From positions 621-64,620 of the forward strand of contig DATDWB010000027.1 of the NCBI GenBank assembly GCA_035289845.1: 64,000 bases of DNA. Direction: 5' to 3'. Of the stretch, positions 10,743 through 61,767 are shown in pieces. Source of the stretch: Candidatus Nanoarchaeia archaeon. GTDB taxonomy: Archaea > Nanobdellota > Nanobdellia > Woesearchaeales > GW2011-AR9. Within the stretch, counting starts at the first letter, position 1; every line of letters starts with the position of its first letter. The notes under the pieces are model-generated. The model searched no databases. It saw only the letters and a program-made list of their open reading frames with translations, and had not been told where the DNA came from. The position numbers and the translations under genes were made by a program.

Positions 10743-12872
10743 ATGTCTCTGAAGAAAAAGGAAAAAGGCGCCGATTGGTTTACTGTAGAAGTTGATTCAA
10801 AGGGAATCCTAACCCATTATCCTAAAGATGCCCTCCACGGATTAAAATCTATCCGGCTGCAGGTAGATTACGAGCCGGAAGCCTTGTACCTTCAGCTAAC
10901 ACAGGGGAAAAAACTTCTTAGCTCAGCAGTAGTGGATGGATCTTTCTACGAAAACTTTGCCGAACAATTACGTAAGGGGGCAGTATTAGAATTGCAAACT
11001 TCAATCGTTCAGGAGACAGAAAATGATCCGCCCATTCCTCGGCTGAAGATAAATTCTTTAAGAATTAACACCGATAAGCAATGGTATCTAACCCACCGCA
11101 CTGCTTATACCTTAGAAGATTTAACCGAGATTAAAAGAGAAATAAGACGGCGGGATGCTTATTATGATTCCTTAGCAGTTAGAGATAAAAAAAAGCAGAT
11201 TAAAATTCTTCAAAGAACGGAAAATGATCTTGATTTAGAAGATAAAATATCAGGTAAATTGGTTGAAGAACGTGGAGAGGAAGTGGAAGATGAAGATTTT
11301 AAAGAAAATGATTCTTCCACTGCCGAGGATTACATTGGGGCATTTACTTACCCAGAAATTAAACGAATTTCGCGGCAGCTGGGAATTAGACGACCCAGAT
11401 CGCCTGCCTCACCGCCCAGTCAAGGTGGGGGAAAAATGAAAAGCAATTCTGATCCACTCCAAATTGATTCTTACAGCTTAATTGAACAAGACCTGTCAAA
11501 ATCCAAAATACTCTCCAAAGAATCTGAAATTCAACTTTGTAAAAAAATAGAATCAGCCAAAAATTTAATCCAAAAATTAGGTTCAGAATTACCAATAACC
11601 CTAGCGATGTATTTCCCAAGTGAAATGCCTAAGGCCCTATCCAAATCATTAGAGTTATTGCATCAATGGAAAATTAATTATAATAATACTAATAATGGTA
11701 ATGGTATACTGGAGGAATATTTTAATTTTAAACCGTTTGATTGCGACCCTGAAAAAATTACCCAAACCGAAATGGAATTAGAATCCATTATTAAATCCTG
11801 GAAGAAGTTAGGACTGCTGGGATCGCCAATATTAGATGAAGTTTTTAAAAATACAGATCCTGAAAATGTATCTTTTTTCTCAGAAAAATATATTAGACCT
11901 TTAGGTTCGCTAAGAGCATTAGCTAAGATACCTTTTAATTCCCAAGTTAAAAAAGAATTAATCCGCTGGGCGGTGGAAAGAGGATTACAGGACTATTTGC
12001 ATAAGAAATCACCCGAAGAATCTACTTATTACAGAAAACAAGGCAATGGCTTTAGATTAAACAGCAGCTATTTTATATCTAAATATATAGAGGGTGAAGT
12101 AAATTATAATCAGTTAGTGGGAGAATTTGCCAAAGCAAATATGCGGTTAGTTAGATCTTATGTTAACCGGTTTAGTGGTTATTGCTCGGGAGCAATTGCC
12201 CTTACCGATCTTTTCCAGGAAGGCAACCTGGGTCTGCTTAGAGCCATCAAAAAGTTTGACTGGCGGAAAGGTCATAAGTTTTCAACTTATGCTACTTGGT
12301 GGATCTACCAAGGAATTAGCAAGTATGCCAAAGATAACAACAGCTCAATTAGAATTCCCTTGCATCTCCAAGATAAAATTCATAACATCAAAAAATATTA
12401 TTCTAATTTTACTCAACTATATGACCGGGAGCCTACCGCAGAAGAATTAGATCTTGAATTTCCTCCCGGCCAGCAGGGAAAGAAGTCGGGAAGTGATATT
12501 CTAAAAGAAGCCCGTTCAGCAAAAGTTTATTCTCTTAATTCAAACATCAATACCGAAGATGACAGTGAAAAATTCAAGTTAGACAAATATATAGATGGAA
12601 ATGAAGAAAACTTGGTTGGGTTCATGGCAGTTGAAAAACAGTCTGAAACACAAGTTTATGACCAAGAACTGTTAGAAAAAAATAATAGGATTATTAGCGA
12701 GGTTTTGGGTAAACGAGAAGCAGAGATAATCCGTAAACGGTTTGGGTTGTATCCCTACCAAAAGATTTATACTTTAGAAGCTATCGGAAATACTTTTGGT
12801 CTAACCCGAGAACGGATTAGGCAGCTTGAACAAATATCTATGTTAAGGTTGAAGGAAAAAATCATAAAATAA
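10743..12872 (+). CDS. sigma-70 family RNA polymerase sigma factor (RpoD-like: regions 1.2, 2, 3, 4) with long N-terminal extension
   Basis: Region 1.2 'DPLQIDSYSLIEQDLSKSKILSKESEIQLCKKIE'. Region 2 'ANMRLVRSYVNRF...LTDLFQEGNLGLLRAIKKFDWRKGHKFSTYATWWIYQGISKYAKDNNSSIRIPLHLQDKIHNIKK'. Region 4.2 HTH 'VLGKREAEIIRKRFGLYPYQKIYTLEAIGNTFGLTRERIRQLEQISMLRLKEK'. Confidence 0.8.
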   Translation: MSLKKKEKGADWFTVEVDSKGILTHYPKDALHGLKSIRLQVDYEPEALYLQLTQGKKLLSSAVVDGSFYENFAEQLRKGAVLELQTSIVQETENDPPIPRLKINSLRINTDKQWYLTHRTAYTLEDLTEIKREIRRRDAYYDSLAVRDKKKQIKILQRTENDLDLEDKISGKLVEERGEEVEDEDFKENDSSTAEDYIGAFTYPEIKRISRQLGIRRPRSPASPPSQGGGKMKSNSDPLQIDSYSLIEQDLSKSKILSKESEIQLCKKIESAKNLIQKLGSELPITLAMYFPSEMPKALSKSLELLHQWKINYNNTNNGNGILEEYFNFKPFDCDPEKITQTEMELESIIKSWKKLGLLGSPILDEVFKNTDPENVSFFSEKYIRPLGSLRALAKIPFNSQVKKELIRWAVERGLQDYLHKKSPEESTYYRKQGNGFRLNSSYFISKYIEGEVNYNQLVGEFAKANMRLVRSYVNRFSGYCSGAIALTDLFQEGNLGLLRAIKKFDWRKGHKFSTYATWWIYQGISKYAKDNNSSIRIPLHLQDKIHNIKKYYSNFTQLYDREPTAEELDLEFPPGQQGKKSGSDILKEARSAKVYSLNSNINTEDDSEKFKLDKYIDGNEENLVGFMAVEKQSETQVYDQELLEKNNRIISEVLGKREAEIIRKRFGLYPYQKIYTLEAIGNTFGLTRERIRQLEQISMLRLKEKIIK

Positions 12873-16392: not shown

Positions 16393-17709
16393 TTACAACT
16401 GATCATCCGTCATTACTTTAACTTGTCTGGAATCCCGCACAGTGGAATTGGTGGCCAAAAGAAATTTAACTCCAATCTTTTCCGCCAAGTTGACTAAATC
16501 CTGATCGGCAGTGCCATCGATAGCTAAAGCATAAACTCCGCCGTTAAGACTCTTGATGGTCGAAACCAACTCGCTTAAAGGAACTTTGCCTAGGACGTTT
16601 AATTTTTGATCAAAGATACAGGCGCCTCTAGTTCCAAACAAATCTTCCATGGTTTGTTTTAAGATTTTCTTTTCATCGTCAGAAATTACTGAATTTTTGC
16701 CACTGACACCATTTCCATTACTGGGACGAGGATTTTTCAACAACTTAGATGGTTGCTGGTGGGAAGGCTGCAATCGGCCAAATCCATTGGTTGGTTTGGA
16801 GTAATCTTTCTTGAAATTAGGCCGGCTGTTCTGAGTTTGTTCTGAAGGAGGAATCTTCAACGAACCTGTATCGTCTACTCCTAACTCTAATTTGGCCTGC
16901 TCGGAAGTTATTTTGCCGCGTAAAGATTTATGAATTTCTTTTTTGGTTAATTCTTCTACTTCCTTCCCATCAGGAGCCTTACACACAGAATCAATATCAG
17001 CTACACTTAGCAATTCCCGGATAATTAAATCTCCACCCCGATCCCCATCTACAAACACGGTAGCTGATTTCTTTCGAGTCAACTCCTTAAGAGTTCTAGG
17101 GCAGGATGTTCCGTTCATGGCGATAGCGTTCTTAAACCCATGTTTCAAAAGAGTCAATACGTCGGCTCTTCCTTCAACGATGATGATCTCTTCCGACTCA
17201 TTGATAGCTGGACCGGCAGCTAATTTTTCCGGCCCATAATCTACCACTTCCATCATCCGTACGGATTGAGCTACTTCATCAGCTAACTCCTGCGAGTCAG
17301 GCAGAGTACTTTCAGTCAAAGTTTTAAGCAGCTCTTTTGCTCTAGCAATTACAAATTCCCGCTTAGTTATTCTTACGTCTTCTATACCCTGAACTTGAAC
17401 TTTAGCATTACAGGGGCCAATGCGTTGGATAATCTCTAAAGAAGCACCTACAATAGCAGTTTCAGTCTTGTCTAAAGAACTAGGAATGATAATTTCCCCG
17501 GAAGTTTTACCAGACATGGTATTGATGTTAACTTCAATCCGGCCGATTCTTCCACTTCGCTGCAATTCACGCAGTTCTAAATCATTGCCTAGCAATCCTT
17601 CGGTTTGACCAAATATTGCTCCGATGACATCGGGGCGGTCAACGACCCCTTCGATGGTAATTGTTGAATTGATGATATACTTAGCCGCAACTGGGCTTAT
17701 TTTTGCCAT
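16393..17709 (-). CDS. dnaG: archaeal DnaG-like primase (Toprim domain)
   Basis: N-terminus 'PDVIGAIFGQTEGLLGNDLELRELQRSGRIGRIEV...IIPSSLDKTETAIVGASLEIIQRIGP' and Toprim 'IIIVEGRADVLTLLKHGFKNAIAMNGTS...VFVDGDRGGDLI' are typical of archaeal DnaG. Confidence 0.85.
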   Translation of the reverse strand: MAKISPVAAKYIINSTITIEGVVDRPDVIGAIFGQTEGLLGNDLELRELQRSGRIGRIEVNINTMSGKTSGEIIIPSSLDKTETAIVGASLEIIQRIGPCNAKVQVQGIEDVRITKREFVIARAKELLKTLTESTLPDSQELADEVAQSVRMMEVVDYGPEKLAAGPAINESEEIIIVEGRADVLTLLKHGFKNAIAMNGTSCPRTLKELTRKKSATVFVDGDRGGDLIIRELLSVADIDSVCKAPDGKEVEELTKKEIHKSLRGKITSEQAKLELGVDDTGSLKIPPSEQTQNSRPNFKKDYSKPTNGFGRLQPSHQQPSKLLKNPRPSNGNGVSGKNSVISDDEKKILKQTMEDLFGTRGACIFDQKLNVLGKVPLSELVSTIKSLNGGVYALAIDGTADQDLVNLAEKIGVKFLLATNSTVRDSRQVKVMTDDQL

Positions 17710-18061
17710 TTTAAATTCCTCCGTTTTAAAGAAAGAGTCAAATCACTAATTTCACTTAAACTTCTACCCTAAGCTAAACTGCTGGTTAAACTTTTTACTT
17801 AGCATCTCTTTTGATTGGTACCGGTGAGGTACTCTAAATGAATCGTGAAACTGCTCTTTCGGTTTAAATCTATGATTATGAAGCCCGTACTACTAACCCC
17901 CACGGTCAAAGCTTGGTACGCAAAAATCGAAGATTTTTGGCATCCTTTTCAGGACTTGGCCGTAAGCTCACGCAGGTACTCTCGCGACGGGCTAATTTAA
18001 AAATTTGAACTTCTAGTATATAAAGTATTCGGTCTAAAATTCTGGTTTGAAGATTTAAGCT

Positions 18062-18175
18062 AAAAAAAAATAAACCCAGCAGGCTCTTGCGAACCCGCCA
18101 GGGATACCCTTCCGGCCGAAGCCTTCTAGGAGACAGGAAGATTACTCCTCCTGCCTAAAAAGAGGTGGTTTTGAG
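18062..18175 (-). ncRNA. candidate small structured RNA (unassigned) ending in an oligo-T tract
   Basis: On the minus strand the locally GC-rich segment '...GGCUUCGGCC GGAAGGGUAUCCCUGGCGGGUUCGCAAGAGCCUGCUGGG' has a UUCG hairpin and ends in 'TTTATTTTTTTTT' (an archaeal terminator-like tract). It lies in the 560-nt non-coding gap upstream of dnaG. Identity unknown. Confidence 0.2.
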
Positions 18176-21643: not shown

Positions 21644-21767
21644 ATCAAATATTATTAAACCTTCTTACTACTTGATAGTTCAAAATAAAAGCAATGTCAC
21701 TTCACTGAAGCTGCTCCAGACCATCCAGACCAAAATTTATATAAATGAAACTATTTCTCAAATAAAC

Positions 21768-23492
21768 ATGACTCAAAAGACGGCCGAGGAATTAGCTAAA
21801 AAGCAGCGAGAGATTTCTATCGCTGAATTCTTTGAAAAAAACCGGCATTTGCTGGGTTTTGACAATCCCCGAAGAGCTTTATTAACCGCAATCAAGGAAG
21901 CAGTAGACAATGCCTTAGATGCCTGTGAAGAAGCCCGAATTCTGCCGGAAATTAATGTTGAAATAATCCAATTGGAAGAAACTAGGTTTAGGATGGTAGT
22001 GGAAGATAACGGACCAGGGATAATAAAAAAACAAATCCCCCGAATTTTTGCCAAATTGCTGTACGGTTCAAAATTCCACAAATTATCGGCTACTCGGGGA
22101 CAGCAAGGAATAGGAATTTCAGCCGCAGTGTTATACGGCCAGTTGACCACTGGAAAACCAGCCACTATAATTTCCAAAACTGAAGTCAATAAAAAAGCCC
22201 AGCTGGTTAAATTAAAAATTAATACTCAAATTAATGAACCACAAATAATCGAAGAAACAGAAATAGATTGGGAAAACAAAGATCATGGAACCAAAATTGA
22301 AATTGATTTTGAAGGCAGTTATAACAAAGGCCGACAATCAGTAGATGAATACCTTAAAGAAACGGCCATTGTAAACCCGCATTGTACCATCATTTTTACC
22401 AATCCGGAAGCCAACCAAATTATTTTTCCCCGGGCCAGCCCAAATCTTCCTCCTGAGCCTAAAGAAATTAAGCCTCACCCTTATGGAATAGAATTGGGAA
22501 GGTTGATCAAGATGTTAGAACTAACTGAAGCCAAGACCTTGCAGCAATTTCTAACAGATGAATTTGTACGAGTTGGACCAGGAACCGCTAAACAAATTTG
22601 TGAAAATTCAGCTCTGCTGCCTCGAACTAACCCTAAACAGATCAGCCGGGACATGGCGGAAAATTTACATAAGGGAATTAACAAAACCAAAATTATTGCC
22701 CCGCCGACGGATTGCATCTCTCCCATCGGAGATGATTTGCTGGAAAGGGGATTGAGAAAAGAAATTAACGCTGAATTTTACTGCGCAGTAACTCGGCCGG
22801 CAGCAGTTTACCGGGGAAACCCCTTTGTAATTGAAGCAGCTCTAGCTTTCGGAGGAGAACAGGAAGCAGATAAGTCCATCCGGGTAATGCGTTTTGCTAA
22901 CCGAGTTCCGTTATTATACCAACAAGGAGCCTGTGGGATTACTAAAGCCATTCAAGATACAGCCTGGAGATCGTATGGACTGCAGCAAAGTAAAAATTCC
23001 TTGCCAGTTGGCCCGTGCACTATTTTAGTTCACATGACTTCAGTTTGGGTTCCGTTTACTTCTGAATCTAAGGAAGCTTTAGCCCATTACCCAGAAATAA
23101 TTAAAGAAATACGGCTAGCTTTGCAGGAGTGCGGGCGGAAACTAGGGTCATTTGTCAATAAAAAAAGACGAATCCGAGATGAAGCTAAAAAAAGAGGTTA
23201 TATTGAGAAATATATATCCCACGTAGCCGATGCCTTAGGTGAACTTATTGGCTTAAGTGAAGCTGATAAGAAAAAAACCGAAGATGATTTATATAAAATA
23301 CTGGAATCTACCCGAGGTCAATTAGAAGAGATTAAAGTTGACAATCCTGAATATGATGCCGAAATGGCCAAAATAGGCCGGGAAGAAGAAGAATTTGAAC
23401 CAGAAAAAATTGAGTCCACCAGAAAAGCAAAAAAAGGAAAGCAAACTAAATTAGTAGATGAGGATCAATATTCAGAAGAGGAGCAGGAATAA
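21768..23492 (+). CDS. top6B: DNA topoisomerase VI subunit B
   Basis: '[39 protein letters not shown]' (Bergerat/GHKL ATPase N-terminus) and 'VEDNGPGI'. Start set to 21768 (MTQKT). About 574 aa. Confidence 0.9.
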
Positions 23493-42647: not shown

Positions 42648-45113
42648 CTAAACTAATTCTTCCGGACCGTCCGGAGGTGCATCTTCCTCGATCAATATTT
42701 TAGCCGAAGCAGCCAACTGGTCAGCATCATTCAAGCGCATTACTCTTACACCCTGGGTAGATCTTCCAATAAGTGAAATATCTGAACTTTTAATTCTTAT
42801 CCCAATACCCTGCTTAGATACCAGCATTACTTCCTCGTTTCCGTCAACTAACATGACCGCTTTAACCAACCCATTTTTATCCGTTATCTTAATGTTAGTT
42901 ACTCCTTTACCCCCCCGATTGCACAATCTATAATCGGCTACCGGAGTTCGTTTTCCATAACCCTTTTCAGTTAAGGTTAAAATGTTTTTAGTTTCGTCCG
43001 CGGCTAACATCCCAATAACTTTATCGCCTTCACTTAATCTTATTCCCCTAACTCCCCTAGCCGTTCGGCCCATAACCCTAACTGCACTTTCCCTAAATCT
43101 ATTAGCCTGGCCTTCTCGAGTGGCCAAAATTATTTCCTTGCTGCCATCCGTATATAAAACATTAACTAGATGATCATCATCTAATGTTATAGCGCGTATA
43201 CCGCCGCTTCTGGGACGAGAAAAGTCCATTAACTCGGTTTTTTTTACTGTTCCATTCTCAGTAGCCATGAATAAATATCCTTCCGCAAAATCACGCACTG
43301 GAATTATAGCATTAATCTTCTCTTCCGGCCGTAACTCTAAAATATTGGCCAGATGTTTTCCTTTACCCTGCCGAGTAGATTCGGGGATTTGATAAACCTT
43401 TAACCAATAAACCTGCCCAATATCAGTAAAGCATAATAAATAAGCGTGGGTGGAAGTAATATACAATTGTTCAATAAAATCTTCATCTTTCATCCCAGCA
43501 GCAATAACTCCCTTACCCCCTCTTTTCTGAGTTTTATAGGTGTCAATCGGTAGGCGTTTAACATACCCAGAATTAGTCATAGTAACTACCACAGTATGTT
43601 CTTCAATTAATTCTTCCAGATCTACCTCTTCATCTTCCCCGGGAACTAACTGCGATCGCCTCTCATCACCATAATTAGTTTTAATATCTTCCAATTCTTC
43701 TTTTATTAATTGTTTAACTAATTCATCTGAGGATAAGATTTGACGGTAATAAACTATTTTTTCTAAGAGCTCGGTATGTTCGGACCTAATTTTTTCCTGC
43801 TCTAAGGAAGCTAACTTTTGCAACCTTAAATCCAAGATAGCTTTAGCCTGCAGATCGGATAGGGGATAATTATTCATCAAAAATTCTTTGGCATCTTCAA
43901 CTGTCCGGCTATTTCTTATTCCGGGAATAACTTGATCTAAATTATTAAGAGCAATGAGCAAACCTTCCAAGATATGGACCCTATTTTCAGCCTGGTTAAG
44001 GTCGTACTTAGTTCGACGAAGAATTATTTCAGTACGGTGGGTAATATGATAATTTAAGAAGTCTTTCAATCCGACTACCACCGGCTGATTATCTACCAGC
44101 GCCAGCATGTTGATACCAAAAGAAACTTTTAACCGGCTGTGTTTATAGAGCTGATTTAATATTACATTGCCATCAGTATCCCGCTTCAAATCTATAACCA
44201 CTCTTATCCCATCTTGATCTGATTCATCGTTAATGTTCCTAATCCCACTTATAACCTTATCCCGAACTAAATCAGCTATCTGTCCAATCAATTCCTCCTT
44301 ATTTACCTGATAGGGTATCTCAGAAATTATTATCTGTTCATCCTTAACTTGACAAACTGATTTGATGGAAACCTTCCCCTTCCCAGTAACGTAAGCCTGC
44401 AGCAAGGAATTACCAGTAGAAACAATGCCCCCAGTAGGGAAATCGGGAGCAGGGAGTATGCTCATAAGTTCATTAATTGTAATTTGCGGATTATTAATGG
44501 AAGCAATTAGGGCGTTGCATACTTCTAGGACATTATGAGGAGGAATATTAGTGGCCATCCCCACCGCAATGCCTGAAGAACCGTTGACCAATAAATTAGG
44601 CAGTTTGGAAGGTAAAACTTCCGGTTCTTTCAAAGAAGCATCGAAATTGTCCCTAAAATTAACCGTTTCTTTCTCAATGTCTTTAAGCATCTCTTCAGCC
44701 AATTTACTTAACTTAGCTTCGGTATACCGCATAGCCGCAGCGGAATCACCATCGATACTGCCAAAATTGCCCTGCCCCTTAATTAGAGGATACCGCAGAG
44801 AGAAATCCTGAGCCATCCGAACTAAAGAATCATAGACTGCTGTATCTCCATGAGGATGGTATTTACCCAAAACTTCCCCCACTATCCGAGCACTTTTCTT
44901 GAAGGGCTTATTATGAAACATTCCCAGATCGTACATAGAATACATAATTCGCCGGTGAACTGGTTTAAGGCCATCTCTAATATCCGGCAGAGCCCGGCCC
45001 ACAATGACCGACATGGCATAATTTACATAGGCGGTCTTCATCTCCTCCTCAATTACTCTAGGGACTACCCGAGGAGTATTGGGCAAGGGCTGATTGGTGT
45101 CGGATGGATCCAT
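42648..45113 (-). CDS. gyrA: DNA gyrase subunit A
   Basis: '[33 protein letters not shown]', '[63 protein letters not shown]' (active-site Tyr region), and C-terminal beta-pinwheel repeats. Confidence 0.9.
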
Positions 45114-54616: not shown

Positions 54617-56080
54617 ATGGATTGTATTATCTTAAGGTATGCTGAAATAGGACTAAAAAGTAAACGTACTAAAGGGTTCTTTGAGAAAAAATACCTCCAA
54701 GCCATAAAAGAAGCCCTAAACCGGAAAAAAATAGAATTTTCAGAAATAAAAAATTATGGGGGGCGGTTTGTGGTTCTTACCCCAAACGAAGACGCGGTGT
54801 ATGTATTACGCAATGTTCCCGGGATTGAAAGTTTATCTCCGGCCATAAGCGGAAAATTCCAAGACCAGGAAGATCTTATCACTAAGATTAAACCCTTAGC
54901 TGAACCGTTGGTAAAAGGCAAAACTTTTGGGGTAAGAGTCAAAAAAATAGGAAATCATCCCTTTACCTCTTTAGAGATATCCGCCAAAATTGCTGATTTG
55001 ATCTATGGTGGAAGCGCGGGGGTTAACCTCACTTCGCCTGAAGTGGCAATTTACATTGAATTAAGGGATAAAGACTTTTTTGTTTACACCCAAACATTAA
55101 AAGGTATTGGCGGTTTATCCTCCGCCAGTACAGGAAAAGTTTTGGTGCTGTTCTCAGGAGGAATTGACAGCCCAGTAGCGGCTCATTCCATGCTTAAGCG
55201 TGGATGTAAGTGTGATTTTTTGCTAGTTAATTTTTCTGGAGACAAAAATTTTTCCCAAGTAGCAAAGGTGTATAATTTTTTAATTAACGAGTATGCCTTT
55301 AACTACACCCCTAAATTTTATTTAATAAATGGCCAAGAAATAATTGAACAAATTCAACAAAATGTTCCCGACAGGCTTAAACAGATAGCCCTAAAAATAA
55401 ATTTATACCGGTTGGCTTCGGAAATTGCCCAGGAAGAGGGGCAGGAAGCAATTGTAACCGGAGAAGCTCTTTCACAAAAATCCAGCCAGACAGTTCAGTC
55501 CCTAGCGGTTATAAGCAGCCAGACTACCCAATTGATGCTGCGGCCACTCCTAGGAATGAACAAGACCGAAATTGTAGAGTTAGCTAGAAAAATTGGAACC
55601 TTGGCAGCTTCAGAAAAAGTAAAAGAGTACTGTAACCTTTCATCTGGGCCGGTAAACACTTCCCCTAAGATGAGTGATATAGAAAAAATCCCAGTACAGC
55701 CAGAACTTATCCGCCGGGCAGTTAAAGAAAAAAAGTATTTTAATGGCCTCATTAAAATAGAATTAGAACCGGATTTAATACCAGAAGAATTAGCCTGCCA
55801 AATAACCGGAAAAAAACCTAAGCCGGAAATTGAATTTACCACGGTGGACATAAGACCAAAAAATTTGCAAGAATTATCCCCCCTTAAAATGGATATTTCT
55901 AAACCGTATCCCTTTATTTTGGAAGAGATAGATGAGTTTGATAAAAATAAAACGTACTTAATTATTTGTGATTATGGAGTTAGAAGTGAAGAAGTGGCTT
56001 ACCAGCTAAGGAAAAAAGGAGTAAAAGCGGCAGGTATAACACTTAATAGTTACTTTAAGTATAGTGGTAAAAAAAATTAA
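54617..56080 (+). CDS. thiI: tRNA 4-thiouridine synthase ThiI (THUMP + PP-loop + C-terminal rhodanese-like domain)
   Basis: 'RYAEIGLKSKRTKGFFEKK', THUMP region, PP-loop 'VLFSGGIDSPVAAH', C-terminal 'YLIICDYGVRSEEVAYQLRKKG' (rhodanese Cys loop). Confidence 0.85.
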   Translation: MDCIILRYAEIGLKSKRTKGFFEKKYLQAIKEALNRKKIEFSEIKNYGGRFVVLTPNEDAVYVLRNVPGIESLSPAISGKFQDQEDLITKIKPLAEPLVKGKTFGVRVKKIGNHPFTSLEISAKIADLIYGGSAGVNLTSPEVAIYIELRDKDFFVYTQTLKGIGGLSSASTGKVLVLFSGGIDSPVAAHSMLKRGCKCDFLLVNFSGDKNFSQVAKVYNFLINEYAFNYTPKFYLINGQEIIEQIQQNVPDRLKQIALKINLYRLASEIAQEEGQEAIVTGEALSQKSSQTVQSLAVISSQTTQLMLRPLLGMNKTEIVELARKIGTLAASEKVKEYCNLSSGPVNTSPKMSDIEKIPVQPELIRRAVKEKKYFNGLIKIELEPDLIPEELACQITGKKPKPEIEFTTVDIRPKNLQELSPLKMDISKPYPFILEEIDEFDKNKTYLIICDYGVRSEEVAYQLRKKGVKAAGITLNSYFKYSGKKN

Positions 56081-56535: not shown

Positions 56536-57255
56536 ATGGAAAATGAGAATTTGAATGTATTGAATGTTGCTAAAGGTAAAGCTCCATCAAATAGAAACAA
56601 TTTGTTGCTGGTTGCTTCCTTAATTCAAATAGTTTTACTGATTGTAGTGATTTCAAAACTGGGCGTAAATACTACTTCCCCAACTGGTGGAGTGGTAGTG
56701 GACGATTCTTTGCCCTCACCCACTGTTCCCTTAGACATGCAAGCATTAATTGATGATGATGCCATTAAAGGTGACCCTAAAGCCCCGGTTACAATAATCG
56801 AATTTAGCGATTTTGAGTGTCCATTCTGCGGTCGATTTTATACTGAAACCCTAGGAAAAATTGATGAAAAATATATCAAAACTGGAAAAGTCAGGCTAGT
56901 CTATCGGGATTTCCCTTTAAGTTTCCATCCTCAAGCTCAAAAAGCAGCTGAAACAGCTGAATGTGCTGGCGACCAAAACAAGTACTATGATATGCACGAT
57001 AAATTGTTTGAACTGGGTGTTAGTGGAGGAGTCGCTTCCTTTAAGCAGTATGCTAAAGATTTAGGTTTAGACACCGCTAAATTTAACGCCTGCTTAGATT
57101 CAGGAGAGAAGGCCGCTGAAATAAGCAATGATTTCATTGACGGACAAAATGCAGGAATTCAAGGTACGCCCGGATTTATTGTAAATGGGATTATGATCTC
57201 GGGAGCACAGCCTTACCAAGTATTTGAGCAAGTGATTGAATCATTACTTAAATAA
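56536..57255 (+). CDS. DsbA-like thiol:disulfide oxidoreductase with N-terminal membrane anchor
   Basis: TM anchor, then thioredoxin-fold 'VTIIEFSDFECPFCGRFY' (CPFC) and 'GTPGFIVNG' cis-Pro loop region. Confidence 0.75.
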   Translation: MENENLNVLNVAKGKAPSNRNNLLLVASLIQIVLLIVVISKLGVNTTSPTGGVVVDDSLPSPTVPLDMQALIDDDAIKGDPKAPVTIIEFSDFECPFCGRFYTETLGKIDEKYIKTGKVRLVYRDFPLSFHPQAQKAAETAECAGDQNKYYDMHDKLFELGVSGGVASFKQYAKDLGLDTAKFNACLDSGEKAAEISNDFIDGQNAGIQGTPGFIVNGIMISGAQPYQVFEQVIESLLK

Positions 57256-57335
57256 AAATTTTATTTTTTTAATTTTTGTGTTTATTTAATATTAATAATT
57301 TGGGATTGATTTTAAAAAAGATTTATTGATTAAAA

Positions 57336-57878
57336 TTACTTTTTGATTATACATACCTTAGTGGTTATCTTATTAGCTAAATAAAACAGGGATAACACTA
57401 AAATTATTACTGCTAGGAAGCCTAGTTCCAGCCCCTTAAAGGGAAGAAATCCTAATATACTACTTAACCCTAAAACACTAAAAATACTTAAGGCACAACT
57501 AGGGCAGGCTGGGACTATAATTGCAGCAATAATTCCGGTCAAGCCTGTTCCAGCCGATGAACCAGTTCCAGATAGGGATAACTTTTTCTCATGGAGCTGC
57601 TTCCTTAAAAGATAGATACTGCCTGAAAACACTACTCCTCCCAATAAACAGATTAATATTATAAATATCAAAGCGGGCAGGGGAAGCAGCATTATCCAAC
57701 CGACAATCAGATAAAAAACTAATTTTAGGCTAAAATTAGACCATAAGAGGTGATAATTAATAATTAACCCGTTGGTTACAAAAACTATTAAAGCAAAACT
57801 GAAGGTTAAGATAAAATAACTTTTTTGAGAATATACTTGAATTAAAGCTTCCCAAGTTAAAGTCAAATATTTTTTCAT
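57336..57878 (-). CDS. small polytopic membrane protein with intramembrane CPSC motif (candidate membrane thiol-disulfide oxidoreductase or metal-binding protein)
   Basis: Four or five TM helices with 'IIVPACPSCALSIFSVLG' inside a helix. No loop Cys pair, so not a canonical VKOR/DsbB. Confidence 0.35.
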   Translation of the reverse strand: MKKYLTLTWEALIQVYSQKSYFILTFSFALIVFVTNGLIINYHLLWSNFSLKLVFYLIVGWIMLLPLPALIFIILICLLGGVVFSGSIYLLRKQLHEKKLSLSGTGSSAGTGLTGIIAAIIVPACPSCALSIFSVLGLSSILGFLPFKGLELGFLAVIILVLSLFYLANKITTKVCIIKK

Positions 57879-57908
57879 AAGTTAGATGCAACCGTATTCC
57901 CTAAAGAT

Positions 57909-58253
57909 TTATTCTAATAAGCATCCGCTGCGTAAACTTAAATCTTCCAATGATAACTTGCCTACCTCCCTAGTCCCATCCTCAAATACCCAAGTGGGGT
58001 AAGAAGTTATGCCGGCAAAATTGCAAACTTCTCTTTGCCCGCCACCTTCCAGAGCGCATTCAATATAGTTAACTTCACTAAAACTGCTTCCAAAGAGAAG
58101 TTTTTGTTCTTTACAATGCGGACACCAATCTGCCCCATACATTTTAACACCTTTTTCAGTCAAACATTGAGCAAATTCTTTGCTGGCTCCGTTGCAGCTA
58201 ATTAAAAAGATGGTCAAAACAGCCATTAATAAAATTAAATACGTTTTTTTCAT
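57909..58253 (-). CDS. thioredoxin-like lipoprotein (lipobox LISC, CPHC active site)
   Basis: Signal 'LILLMAVLTIFLISC' ends in a lipobox-like L-I-S-C. 'YGADWCPHCKEQK' thioredoxin motif. Confidence 0.6.
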   Translation of the reverse strand: MKKTYLILLMAVLTIFLISCNGASKEFAQCLTEKGVKMYGADWCPHCKEQKLLFGSSFSEVNYIECALEGGGQREVCNFAGITSYPTWVFEDGTREVGKLSLEDLSLRSGCLLE

Positions 58254-58301: not shown

Positions 58302-58718
58302 TTAAAGAGTTCCTAAAATTTTACCTTTAATATTAGTACTTTTATGTTTATGTTCCTGATAAGGCTTAGCACGTTTAATGAGCGGATTTAATCCCAATTC
58401 ACTTAATTTATCACTTAGATTAGCTTCGCTAATAGCATGGTCATAACCTAAGAAAATTATACCTGGGTTTTTTTCCATAATTATCTTAAAATGATCATCC
58501 GGATAACCCAGCACGGCTTCATCAACTATCCTAAGATTTTTAATCAGCTCTAGCCGTTCATTCTCATTAAATACTACCACTTTATTTTGCTGTTTCTTAG
58601 TCTTATCTCTAGCCACAACTACAATTAAGAAATCTGCTAGCCTCTTTGCCTGTTGTAAATAATTAATATGCCCTAAGTGCAATAGGTCAAAGGTGCCAAA
58701 ACACATTATAGTCTTCAT
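58302..58718 (-). CDS. cytidylyltransferase-fold nucleotidyltransferase, RibL-like (archaeal FAD synthetase) candidate
   Basis: 'MCFGTFDLLHLGHINYLQQAKRLADFLIVVVARD' and 'VDEAVLGYPDD...IIFLGYDH' match the (H/T)xGH cytidylyltransferase family. Size and pattern fit RibL (MJ1179). Start overlaps the upstream gene by 4 nt. Confidence 0.5.
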   Translation of the reverse strand: MKTIMCFGTFDLLHLGHINYLQQAKRLADFLIVVVARDKTKKQQNKVVVFNENERLELIKNLRIVDEAVLGYPDDHFKIIMEKNPGIIFLGYDHAISEANLSDKLSELGLNPLIKRAKPYQEHKHKSTNIKGKILGTL

Positions 58719-60790
58719 TTGTCTTTTAAAACGGCCTCGTCAATTATTAATTTGCCGGAATGAGGGCCATCCATTATTTTTCTGAACCGGATAATTTCTA
58801 ATTTTTTATTAAATAAAGGTGCATCCAGGACTAAAGACTCAAATTCTCCTCCCTCACCCGCTAAGTTAAGATTTTTTCTTTTTAGTTCCTCAATCATTTT
58901 TTCATCAATTTCTCTTCCCAACCAGGATTCGTCTAAACCATCAGCTGCAACAGCAGTAATTACAACCGTAAACCCTTGATGGACTAGATAATACATCTGC
59001 TGTTCCTGAGGTTTATGCCATAAGGGAGAAAAAATTTTTAATTGTAATCTGTCGCAGATTTTTTCTATCCTATCGCGTTGATAAGTTGAAAATATAGCTC
59101 CATTAACAATACCTTCAATCTGATATTTTTCTTTAGCTTTATGCAAGGCTTCCTCCAGATCAGCCAATTCTTCCTCCTTGACTCCTTTAGTTTCCTGAAT
59201 TAAGATTGGAATTCCCATTGATTGGGCCTGTAATTCCACTAATTCTGTTCCTGCTGATTGAAACATGTAAGAATAATTATTTTTGGATTTTAAAGTTATC
59301 AAACAGGTTAACTCGTAATTCTGTTGCTGCATAATATAAGCTGCGGAAGTTGAATCCTTACCGGAAGAAAATAGCACGCCCAACTTAACATTAGAAGGAT
59401 GGTAAAATGTCTGAAGGTAAGCCGATTTGGATACAAAGCCATTTAATTTGGCCAATTTGCTTAATGCATTATCAATTTTTGAACCGTACTGAGCGGCCGT
59501 TTTTTTACGGAAAGCTATTTTGGGATCAATCCCGTCAGCTAAAGCAATATCCCGTAAAATTAGTTTAGTTTCAGAACTTTTAATTTTAAATTCTCCAGGT
59601 ATTTTTAAGGCAAAATTAACTAATTTAAGATCCAGGAAAGGTAATCGCAACTCCAAATTATTCTCCATGGTGATTACGTCGTCCCGGTAAAGGTCTCGTT
59701 CATAAATTTTAAGCAGGCCAGATAGACATTCTGGATTGATATTGGGTGAATTTTTGTGCCGTTCATATCCCGCAAATATTTCTTCACTCCCCAAACCAGA
59801 AAAAATTACCTTGCATCCATCCTCTTTAGCTAATTCACAAGCTAGGTAAAAAGTTAGACCAACCCCTACCTTGACCACATTTGAATCTTCAATTAAGGTA
59901 ATTACTTCTTTTAGATAACCGGGTAGATCTTCTAATTTAATTTTCTTGATTCTTAGTTTTAAATTTAATTTGGCGGCAGCTTTTTGAGCCCAGATTAAAT
60001 CTTGTGGTGGCTGCCCTTCAGTATCTAATACAGCTGTGTAGCAGATAAAATCCTGGCCCAAATCTTGTAGACACTTAGCCAAGAAAGTAGAGTCTACTCC
60101 CCCGGAGAATAACAATCCAAATTTCTGATTAGGTATCCTTTTTTTGACCGCTTCCCGCAATAATTTTTTAGTAGTTTGTTTTAAGTCCCCATATCCTAAT
60201 TGGTGTTCTGGAAGATAGGTTAAAAAATCTCTGAAGATAAAATTAAGAGTTTGTAATTTTAAATGATATATTAATATGGCACGGGGATTTAATTCCTTAA
60301 CTAAATTATAACCCAGATTTTCCAAAACCTTTTTTTCTGAAGCAATAGCCAAAGAGCCATCAACATAGGAATACCACAACGGTTTTACCCCTAGCAAGTC
60401 TCTAGCTAAAATAACTTTATCCCCTTTAATGTAAGCAAAGGAATAAACACCATCCAATTCGGAAAGATAAACTGCTGGTTCTGAGCCAAATACATCCCTC
60501 TTATCCAAGAATTGAAGCAATAAATCCGCATCATTTTCCACTTTAAAATTGTATTTATCCGCCAACTCCCGCCAGTTATAAATTTCACAGTTAGCGGCCA
60601 AAGTTCCAACTCGGGTGATTGGCTGAGGCACATGATTCACCAGAGCATGCAAAGTGTGGCCTAAAAAACTAGCGGGATTGATCTTAGCTATACCTGATCC
60701 ATCCCTGCCCCTATTTTTAAGCAGAGGCAAAGCTAACTTAACCTGTTCTTCCGCCTTAGGATTATTAAAAATTCCAATTATGCCACACAT
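58715..60790 (-). CDS. three-domain fusion: class-II glutamine amidotransferase + asparagine-synthetase-like PP-loop domain + Dph6/MJ0570-like PP-loop ATP pyrophosphatase domain
   Basis: N-terminal 'MCGIIGIF...RGRDGSG' (Ntn Cys2). First PP-loop 'FGLLFSGGVDSTFLAK'. Second PP-loop 'VLFSSGKDSTSAAYI' and 'AGEGGEFESLVLDAPLF', both diagnostic of the diphthine-ammonia ligase / ATP_bind_4 family. Confidence 0.7.
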   Translation of the reverse strand: MCGIIGIFNNPKAEEQVKLALPLLKNRGRDGSGIAKINPASFLGHTLHALVNHVPQPITRVGTLAANCEIYNWRELADKYNFKVENDADLLLQFLDKRDVFGSEPAVYLSELDGVYSFAYIKGDKVILARDLLGVKPLWYSYVDGSLAIASEKKVLENLGYNLVKELNPRAILIYHLKLQTLNFIFRDFLTYLPEHQLGYGDLKQTTKKLLREAVKKRIPNQKFGLLFSGGVDSTFLAKCLQDLGQDFICYTAVLDTEGQPPQDLIWAQKAAAKLNLKLRIKKIKLEDLPGYLKEVITLIEDSNVVKVGVGLTFYLACELAKEDGCKVIFSGLGSEEIFAGYERHKNSPNINPECLSGLLKIYERDLYRDDVITMENNLELRLPFLDLKLVNFALKIPGEFKIKSSETKLILRDIALADGIDPKIAFRKKTAAQYGSKIDNALSKLAKLNGFVSKSAYLQTFYHPSNVKLGVLFSSGKDSTSAAYIMQQQNYELTCLITLKSKNNYSYMFQSAGTELVELQAQSMGIPILIQETKGVKEEELADLEEALHKAKEKYQIEGIVNGAIFSTYQRDRIEKICDRLQLKIFSPLWHKPQEQQMYYLVHQGFTVVITAVAADGLDESWLGREIDEKMIEELKRKNLNLAGEGGEFESLVLDAPLFNKKLEIIRFRKIMDGPHSGKLIIDEAVLKDK

Positions 60791-60862
60791 GGGTGACTAA
60801 TTCCAGGGCGTTTTTATAAAGGTTTAGAATAAAAATAGTCACTAAAAAATCTGTTAGATTTA

Positions 60863-61192
60863 TTAAAAAAGGTTATCTGAAAACTTAACATACACTGGGT
60901 AACAGTTTTCCCTCCAGATATAGGGATTCTCTTTTTGCAGAACAGTCCTAATTATTTCCCGATCTTGCTCCAACAAAGGCTGGCCTAGGGTAGAAGCCAA
61001 AACAAAAATGCATTCCTGCCCCTTATCCCTAGCGCTAGGATTGACAAACAATTCCCTTACTAAGTGAGCTTCTATTACCAATCCGGGAAAGGGGTCACCT
61101 AGATTATGCTGAGATAAGTAATCTTTGATTAGCTGTTCCATTGGTACAATTACTTTGTTAGCGTCGGAAACCTTATTCACATCTTGGACCAT
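60863..61192 (-). CDS. hypothetical protein (109 aa)
   Basis: ORF only. Confidence 0.3.
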   Translation of the reverse strand: MVQDVNKVSDANKVIVPMEQLIKDYLSQHNLGDPFPGLVIEAHLVRELFVNPSARDKGQECIFVLASTLGQPLLEQDREIIRTVLQKENPYIWRENCYPVYVKFSDNLF

Positions 61193-61305: not shown

Positions 61306-61767
61306 TTGATAGACACCAAATCAATAAGGTTAAAGCCTGAATTAATGAAATTGGTTCAGGAACAGAAAATTCCATCGCTGATGCTCTACCTGATTGAAGT
61401 GTATATTACTCCTGAATCGGCTGCGCAAGAAGGATCAAAGGTTGACCTTTCTCAAAAATTTGTTTACAGTAAGTATGGTTTTACACCTTTAAGTAAAGGA
61501 GCAGTTATTATCAGCCCAGAGTTCTTCTTTTCTTCTAAATATTATGAAATCGCAGATTTGACCGATCTTGAAGAAGAAGAAATGCCCCTGTCTTTTTCCA
61601 CAATGGAGCATTTAGTAAGCTACTTAAAAGATAAAAAAATAAAAAAAATAAATTATCCTAGCGGGCCATTTAAGTATTGGGAAGATTTTGAGAGCCTTTT
61701 CCTATATAGGGGTCTGCACCAACCGGAAATAAAAGAAATACTTGACTACGCCAAAAAGATCGCTTGA
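61306..61767 (+). CDS. hypothetical protein (153 aa)
   Basis: ORF only. Confidence 0.3.
   Translation: MIDTKSIRLKPELMKLVQEQKIPSLMLYLIEVYITPESAAQEGSKVDLSQKFVYSKYGFTPLSKGAVIISPEFFFSSKYYEIADLTDLEEEEMPLSFSTMEHLVSYLKDKKIKKINYPSGPFKYWEDFESLFLYRGLHQPEIKEILDYAKKIA

Follow-up and report, generated by a model that had tools for sequence, protein, structure and literature searches.

Conserved substitutions set the AsnB-like module of an archaeal Dph6 fusion protein apart from asparagine synthetase

In a 64,000-nucleotide stretch of genome from a Candidatus Nanoarchaeia archaeon (GenBank assembly GCA_035289845.1, contig DATDWB010000027.1, positions 621 to 64,620; hereafter the window), one gene joins a class-II glutamine amidotransferase (GAT-II) domain, an AsnB-like PP-loop domain and a Dph6/DUF71 domain in a single protein of 691 amino acids (aa) (58715..60790, reverse strand, stop codon at 58715..58717). 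The fusion architecture itself is already known; what is new in this analysis is that its AsnB-like half is something other than a canonical asparagine synthetase. Diphthamide modifies elongation factor 2 (EF-2) universally in archaea and eukaryotes, the source of the ammonia for the last step of its synthesis is not settled, and the fusion is the strongest genomic hint that this source is glutamine in some archaea. The question is sharpened by our observations that Dph6 takes this fused form as standard across an entire DPANN lineage, that the fusion is present in cultured Methanolobus, and that its middle domain is conserved and, from its residues, non-AsnB.

The open reading frame (ORF) contains neither a stop nor a frameshift inside the window, and as a single frame of 691 aa it carries every motif that an initial annotation of this DNA had quoted for it, exactly as given: MCGIIGIF at aa 1-8, LLFSGGVDST at aa 226-235, VLFSSGKDSTSAAY at aa 472-485 and GEGGEFESLVLDAPLF at aa 645-660. 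Pfam searches recovered the three domains named in that annotation far beyond chance, with GATase_7 at aa 55-157 (E=1.2e-14), Asn_synthase from aa 208 (E=7.9e-43) and Diphthami_syn_2 (PF01902) at aa 469-675 (E=5.9e-62; 209.5 bits vs a cut-off of 23.2). PF28410 was rejected as an extra domain, as it is the new Pfam split 'Diphthami_syn_2_C'. All parts of the gene are given here on the reverse strand. The class-II (N-terminal nucleophile, Ntn) GAT domain occupies aa 1-175 (60266..60790), and the asparagine-synthetase-like (AS-like) domain, including its C-terminal helices, occupies aa 208-465 (59396..60169), with the first PP-loop, SGGVDS, at aa 229-234 (60089..60106). The Dph6 domain (DUF71, diphthine--ammonia ligase), made up of the N and C parts of Diphthami_syn_2, follows at aa 469-691 (58718..59386), with the second PP-loop, SSGKDS, at aa 475-480 (59351..59368).

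The C-terminal domain is very probably the Dph6 of this organism, judging by its sequence matches. It passed the curated equivalog TIGR03679 (Dph6_archaeal, NCBIfam; 257.7 bits vs a cut-off of 197.3, aa 472-685), and its ~223-225 aa aligned end to end with PF0828 and PH1257 (~50% identity, E~1e-50), spanning residues 7-229 of the former and 7-224 of the latter. In an AlphaFold2 model of the 691-aa protein, built from a 40-sequence alignment (mean predicted local distance difference test score 87.3, predicted template-modelling score 0.84), this domain matched the PF0828/PH1257 fold with template-modelling (TM) scores of 0.92-0.94. The second PP-loop domain that the initial annotation had placed here is thus a genuine Dph6/DUF71 domain, and the last 220 aa make up a full Dph6 domain, not the C-terminal region of AsnB. 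It retains SxGKDS, SYM, YQR and GEGGEFE(S/T), of which the first and last read SSGKDS (aa 475-480) and GEGGEFES (aa 645-652) in the fusion and are both conserved across the family. The PF0828 residues proposed to face EF-2 are S44, Y45, E78, Y103, Q104, E183, E186 and E188 (PMC3541065); in the alignment SYM, E-E-L, YQR and GEGGEFE match PF0828 residue for residue, so that the proposed EF-2-facing set is present.

The PP-loop, the EGGE motif and the fold are therefore shared with stand-alone archaeal Dph6 (P. furiosus PF0828, PDB 3RJZ/3RK0/3RK1; P. horikoshii PH1257, PDB 2D13), which, unlike the fusion, has no amidotransferase partner domain. Yeast Dph6, which reportedly used ammonium in vitro, differs in carrying RidA-like domains at its C-terminus in place of the N-terminal amidotransferase module. 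The RidA domains fused to eukaryotic Dph6 are putatively NH3-releasing (PMC3541065). The dph pathway is encoded in DPANN archaea (PMC6143161). A tblastn search of the window with both halves of the protein returned no second dph6 or AsnB-like copy, only the fusion gene itself being matched, and neither EF-2 nor dph2/dph5 was among the ten largest ORFs of the window, which are unrelated and include Hef, GyrA and TopoVI-B.

The N-terminal module has the Ntn-GATase and PP-loop synthetase arrangement of E. coli AsnB (PDB 1CT9) and human ASNS (PDB 6GQ3). Its first 436 aa aligned with human ASNS residues 1-473, ~90 C-terminal ASNS residues being absent, and it narrowly missed the asparagine synthase equivalog TIGR01536 (245.2 bits vs a cut-off of 267.1) and did not reach PRK09431 (188 vs a cut-off of 499). 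Residues 1-~465 of the model could be superposed as one unit on both E. coli AsnB and human ASNS (TM 0.75-0.78, target-normalised), and the next-best folds were beta-lactam synthetase, carbapenam synthetase (CarA) and TsnB9, AsnB paralogues that act on other substrates. The linker between the AS-like and Dph6 domains is short.

To read individual residues, 80 genome-derived family members were aligned with human ASNS, with sites annotated per PMC6748925. These came from the loci fetched for alignment and synteny, 80 of which were kept from the 278 matching stretches found in a scan of species-representative genomes. The ASNS numbering was self-consistent, and key mappings were confirmed by profile-to-PDB alignment. 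Common to AsnB/ASNS and the fusion module is the glutaminase network of Cys2, Asn67, Glu69 and Asp87 (ASNS Cys-1, Asn-74, Glu-76 and Asp-96), a set that was invariant in 79-80 of the 80 members, as is the inter-domain Glu380 (ASNS Glu-414), invariant among them. Given these five invariant residues, the GAT domain is predicted to be an active glutaminase; it also conserves Arg27-Gly28 and Asp30 and retains the equivalent of ASNS Val-52. In the AS-like domain the PP-loop S229-G-G-x-D233 was kept in 80/80 and K430, the equivalent of catalytic Lys-466, in 78/80, together with the equivalents of Asp-294, Ser-362, Gly-363, Glu-368, Asp-400 and Arg-403.

Unlike in ASNS, the glutamine-binding Arg-48 (E. 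coli Arg49) is Leu47 and Gly-75 is Cys68, each in 80/80 members. In the AS-like domain Thr-336 is replaced family-wide by Val306, Arg-339 by Gly309 (71/80), Glu-364 by Leu333 (78/80) and Asp-367 by Glu (78/80), and among 187 family sequences with a locatable motif the Glu-364 position was never Glu or Asp. The E. coli AsnB counterparts of Glu-364, Thr-336 and Arg-339, namely Glu348, Thr322 and Arg325, we take to be needed for beta-aspartyl-AMP formation. In human ASNS both the E364A and the E364Q variants are inactive, and Glu-364 is required for activity (PMC6748925). Because these three residues are replaced and TIGR01536 fell below its cut-off, the middle domain, on its residues, is not a canonical asparagine synthetase. 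Of the three domains it is, moreover, the best conserved (mean pairwise identity 0.65, vs 0.59 for Dph6 and 0.56 for GAT). This conservation and the intact ATP/pyrophosphate chassis lead us to read it as a selected and probably ATP-using enzyme with a rebuilt acceptor pocket, not as a decaying scaffold.

AsnB-DUF71 fusions were described in 2012 in Methanohalophilus mahii, Methanosalsum zhilinae and 'Ca. Nanosalinarum' (de Crécy-Lagard et al., PMC3541065), with a three-domain order identical to that found here. Within the AsnB part the authors distinguished GAT-II from Asn_Synthase_B_C, and they proposed glutamine hydrolysis as the NH3 supply for diphthamide, the same role as considered below; a reviewer's query printed with the paper asked which PP-loop domain uses ammonia and what the Asn-synthetase-like one catalyses (PMC3541065). 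Table S1 of that paper gives one DUF71 homologue each for M. mahii and M. zhilinae, and the fusion is therefore their only Dph6 candidate. Our literature search found no later paper testing the 2012 glutamine-NH3 proposal. As both the architecture and the hypothesis were published then, and as the fusion is common in Woesearchaeota, the description of the three-domain fusion as 'novel' in the initial annotation has to be withdrawn. Two points differ from the 2012 account. The fusion was assigned there to 'a few Archaea', whereas here it is the rule in Woesearchaeal/Nanoarchaeial metagenome-assembled genomes (MAGs), and the middle domain was taken there for an Asn synthetase, whereas our residue analysis argues otherwise.

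A word-indexed search returned at least 120 full-length protein clusters at 58-68% identity, mostly from Woesearchaeota/Nanoarchaeota MAGs, and the protein is commonly labelled 'diphthine--ammonia ligase' in hundreds of MAGs. An exhaustive search of 1.84 billion representatives gave 775 clusters at E<=1e-30, in which the three-domain architecture extends to members of ~35% identity. The isolate Methanolobus bombayensis DSM 7082 encodes a homologue with 49% identity over its full length, and another Methanolobus and one Methanofastidiosia MAG were also among the 80 kept loci. The same three-domain order, which the initial annotation had proposed to look for in other genomes, thus recurs in Woesearchaeota, Nanohaloarchaeota and Methanosarcinaceae, including cultured Methanolobus. 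In nearly all of the 80 loci the reading frame opens with Met-Cys. Two sequences have another N-terminus in place of this start: P0130 (1005 aa) carries an SMC-like coiled-coil extension and L041 (a 1045-aa reading frame) the N-terminus of a DRG GTPase. These may be mis-assemblies or read-through gene calls; lacking Cys-1, their glutaminase would be dead.

By architecture, 230 family members comprised 120 three-domain proteins, ~35-49 with GAT and AS-like domains only, and ~16 with AS-like and Dph6 domains but without GAT, and in a crude neighbour-joining tree built on the AS-like domain these variants were intermingled. The standalone GAT+AS-like genes, which belong to the same phylum, terminate against a convergent neighbour, and no dph6 was present within 6-10 kb of the inspected loci. 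The GAT-less genes begin just ahead of the AS PP-loop; a split-gene origin was rejected for them, as the upstream genes are unrelated or divergent and include no separate GAT gene. Because both types of variant are genuine genes, the AS-like domain is the constant core of the family, and GAT and Dph6 are frequent but dispensable partners.

In one standalone clade, that around P0199, P0282 and P0287, automatic annotation has used 'asparagine synthetase B' or 'diphthine-ammonia ligase' as protein names. The catalytic Glu of ASNS is missing from these proteins, and those named 'diphthine-ammonia ligase' have no Dph6 domain at all, so these names are likely a systematic mis-annotation in DPANN MAGs. 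Standalone 'asparagine synthetase B' labels probably overstate the amino-acid biosynthetic capacity of DPANN genomes. On a Woesearchaeal contig with a standalone GAT+AS-like gene (L089), a 222-aa Diphthamide_syn protein followed directly by a 179-aa DnaJ-domain protein is encoded at 16915..18128, ~5.5 kb from the AS-like gene. The former is a split Dph1/2 half, as reported for DPANN, and the pairing recalls eukaryotic Dph4, a J-domain protein, though this may be coincidental.

Our working model, to which we give a probability of roughly 0.45, is that the N-terminal module provides glutamine-derived ammonia for the Dph6 reaction and that the AS-like domain serves it as relay or partner in an ATP-dependent way. 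Cys2 of the Ntn domain would hydrolyse an amide donor, most likely glutamine, and the released ammonia would enter an AsnB-type inter-domain path toward the middle PP-loop domain. That domain may act as an ATP-dependent gate or relay for the ammonia, or may carry out a second amidation tied to the same pathway. The DUF71 domain, from its orthology, would adenylate the diphthine carboxylate on EF-2 and amidate it to diphthamide, and the module as a whole would free diphthamide formation from dependence on free ammonium. This model agrees with what was proposed in 2012 and fits the fusion of eukaryotic Dph6 to RidA domains. The glutamine-dependent amidation suggested in the initial annotation is plausible, and is complicated by the middle domain, which appears to be a conserved non-AsnB adenylating domain.

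Several observations weigh against this model. The GAT-less AS-like+Dph6 genes are real, with no split GAT gene upstream, and the association of the AS-like and Dph6 domains therefore cannot rest on glutaminase NH3 alone. Conversely, GAT+AS-like proteins without Dph6 are frequent in this phylum, and the module can therefore function by itself. An invariant Leu takes the place of Arg-48, the ligand of the glutamine alpha-carboxylate, and free L-glutamine as the donor is therefore not assured. All characterised AsnB-family enzymes, to our knowledge, deliver the ammonia to a synthetase site of their own. Taken together, the lost Arg-48 and Glu-364, the forms without GAT and those without Dph6 are covered by none of the models. 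It is conceivable, and we put it forward tentatively, that the AsnB-like module represents a distinct archaeal amidotransferase family with an EF-2- or diphthamide-tied substrate, serving either a two-PP-loop, glutamine-dependent diphthamide synthesis of a kind not known elsewhere or a second amide modification.

The alternative that survives best places two enzymes on one chain: GAT and the AS-like domain would form a glutamine-dependent amidotransferase, complete in itself, that adenylates and amidates a carboxylate other than that of aspartate, possibly on EF-2 or the translation apparatus, and Dph6 would use free ammonium like its yeast counterpart, the fusion reflecting a shared target or regulation and not the channelling of ammonia to Dph6. 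We regard this as possible but less probable than the working model. It draws on the AS-like domain being the most conserved of the three, with the PP-loop and the Asp-294, Ser-362, Gly-363, Asp-400, Arg-403 and Lys-466 equivalents intact around a remodelled acceptor pocket, and on the module being a complete standalone gene in many Woesearchaeota; the GAT-less forms fit it too, as do the other substrates used by the nearest folds after AsnB (beta-lactam synthetase, CarA and TsnB9). It offers no candidate substrate, no conserved neighbour points to one, and it accounts only loosely for the repeated fusion to Dph6 specifically.

An ordinary bifunctional fusion, in which asparagine synthetase B (Asp + ATP + Gln -> Asn) and Dph6 act independently and were joined by chance in small genomes, is unlikely. 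It is indeed human ASNS and E. coli AsnB that aa 1-436 match best in sequence and in fold, the TIGR01536 score of 245 bits is barely under the cut-off of 267, and annotation pipelines call the standalone relatives 'asparagine synthetase B'. This reading is opposed by the Leu in place of Glu-364, a residue whose E364A and E364Q changes inactivate the human enzyme (PMC6748925), by the family-wide replacement of Thr-336, Arg-339 and Arg-48, and by the missing C-terminal ASNS residues; nor would a chance fusion be expected to persist and recur across distant archaeal lineages. Finally, adjacent asnB-like and dph6 genes joined by an assembly or sequencing error, a reading favoured by nothing except the split forms elsewhere that show the halves can be separate genes, can be dismissed, since the ORF is intact in the window, an identical protein exists in ENA (P0001), and an uninterrupted ORF of 680-725 aa was found in 80/80 fetched loci from independent species-level genomes, that of M. 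bombayensis DSM 7082 included.

Downstream of the fusion gene, a gene for a 138-aa protein of the RibL-like cytidylyltransferase family (58302..58718, reverse strand) overlaps its stop by 4 nucleotides (nt), the ATGA at 58715..58718 serving as stop and start. Both the overlap and the likeness to RibL had been pointed out in the initial annotation and are upheld. The protein opens with MKTIMCFGTFDLLHLGH...IVVVARD, matches PF01467 (cytidylyltransferase-like, E=1.9e-17), contains the HLGH (HxGH) motif and is 47% identical over its full length to T. volcanium 3GLV (143 aa); JGI and NCBI give the name 'FAD synthetase/synthase' to its relatives at 57-62% identity. The gene thus encodes a probable RibL-like flavin adenine dinucleotide (FAD) synthetase, going by these matches. 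With M. jannaschii RibL (MJ1179) and PDB 3GLV it shares a length of ~140 aa, the cytidylyltransferase-like fold and HxGH. Two conserved cysteines have been reported for RibL (PMC11423594); unlike RibL, the 138-aa protein has a single cysteine, Cys6, and the pair is not present. The archaeal-type FAD synthetase of Entamoeba is active although it lacks the RibL cysteine pair, and the Cys6-only state is therefore no bar to FAD synthetase function.

Neighbouring genes were compared by all-vs-all clustering of 1294 ORFs from the 80 loci. A nucleotidyltransferase homologue lies directly downstream of the fusion in 38/80 loci. Nearly all of these belong to the closest relatives; in more distant fusion-bearing genomes, Methanolobus included, the gene is almost never beside the fusion. 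The 'nucleotide-cofactor or modification operon' suggested earlier for this pair is therefore not supported. Because the linkage is clade-limited and nearly gone in distant loci, we read the pairing as a matter of local synteny in which the two genes are translationally coupled, and not as an operon with a joint function, and the RibL-like gene would be co-transcribed through position and not through shared function. The only recurrent neighbours, all clade-limited, were the nucleotidyltransferase, a 179-aa membrane protein, a 107-aa protein and a DRG GTPase; among the 1294 ORFs no functional partner was conserved across lineages beside the fusion, and the distant loci share nothing. A class-I S-adenosylmethionine methyltransferase upstream of the family genes L081/L082, L086 and L075 was dropped as a lead, as the copies are no more than 27-30% identical and their positions inconsistent. 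Scans of the window for tRNA genes and Rfam families gave no matches.

On the upstream side, a TATA-like box (tttataaaaa, 60811..60820, reverse strand) lies 21-30 nt ahead of the fusion-gene ATG. Taken from sequence only, it is consistent with the gene having its own archaeal promoter and a leaderless or short-leader mRNA. Immediately upstream of the fusion gene are a 109-aa ORF (60863..61192, reverse strand), with no Pfam match and a homologue in 0/80 related loci, and a 153-aa ORF (61306..61767, forward strand), with no Pfam match and homologues in 2/80.

Immediately downstream of the nucleotidyltransferase gene is a thioredoxin-type cluster (56536..57255, forward strand; 57336..57878 and 57909..58253, reverse strand). 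It comprises a secreted DsbA-like thioredoxin_4 protein, a 180-aa polytopic membrane protein without a Pfam match and a 114-aa lipoprotein-like thioredoxin-fold protein, has homologues in 9-17 related loci, and may be an extracytoplasmic disulfide-bond system (56536..58253). A 487-aa ThiI (ThiI_fer, THUMP and ThiI PP-loop) with a ~100-aa C-terminal extension past Pfam ThiI is encoded at 54617..56080 (forward strand); it is the third PP-loop ATPase within 6 kb of the fusion and is not conserved in related loci.

Elsewhere in the window, a 709-aa ORF at 10743..12872 (forward strand) matched Sigma70_r2 (56 bits, aa 464-533) and Sigma70_r4 (35 bits, aa 654-705). This sigma-factor-like protein of bacterial type, which has a long extension at its N-terminus, stands among otherwise archaeal genes and would not be expected in an archaeon. 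An 821-aa DNA gyrase subunit A (42648..45113, reverse strand; DNA_topoisoIV and six GyrA_C blades) is encoded in the same window as an archaeal Topo VI subunit B (21672..23492, forward strand), which suggests a bacterial-type gyrase in a DPANN-type genome.

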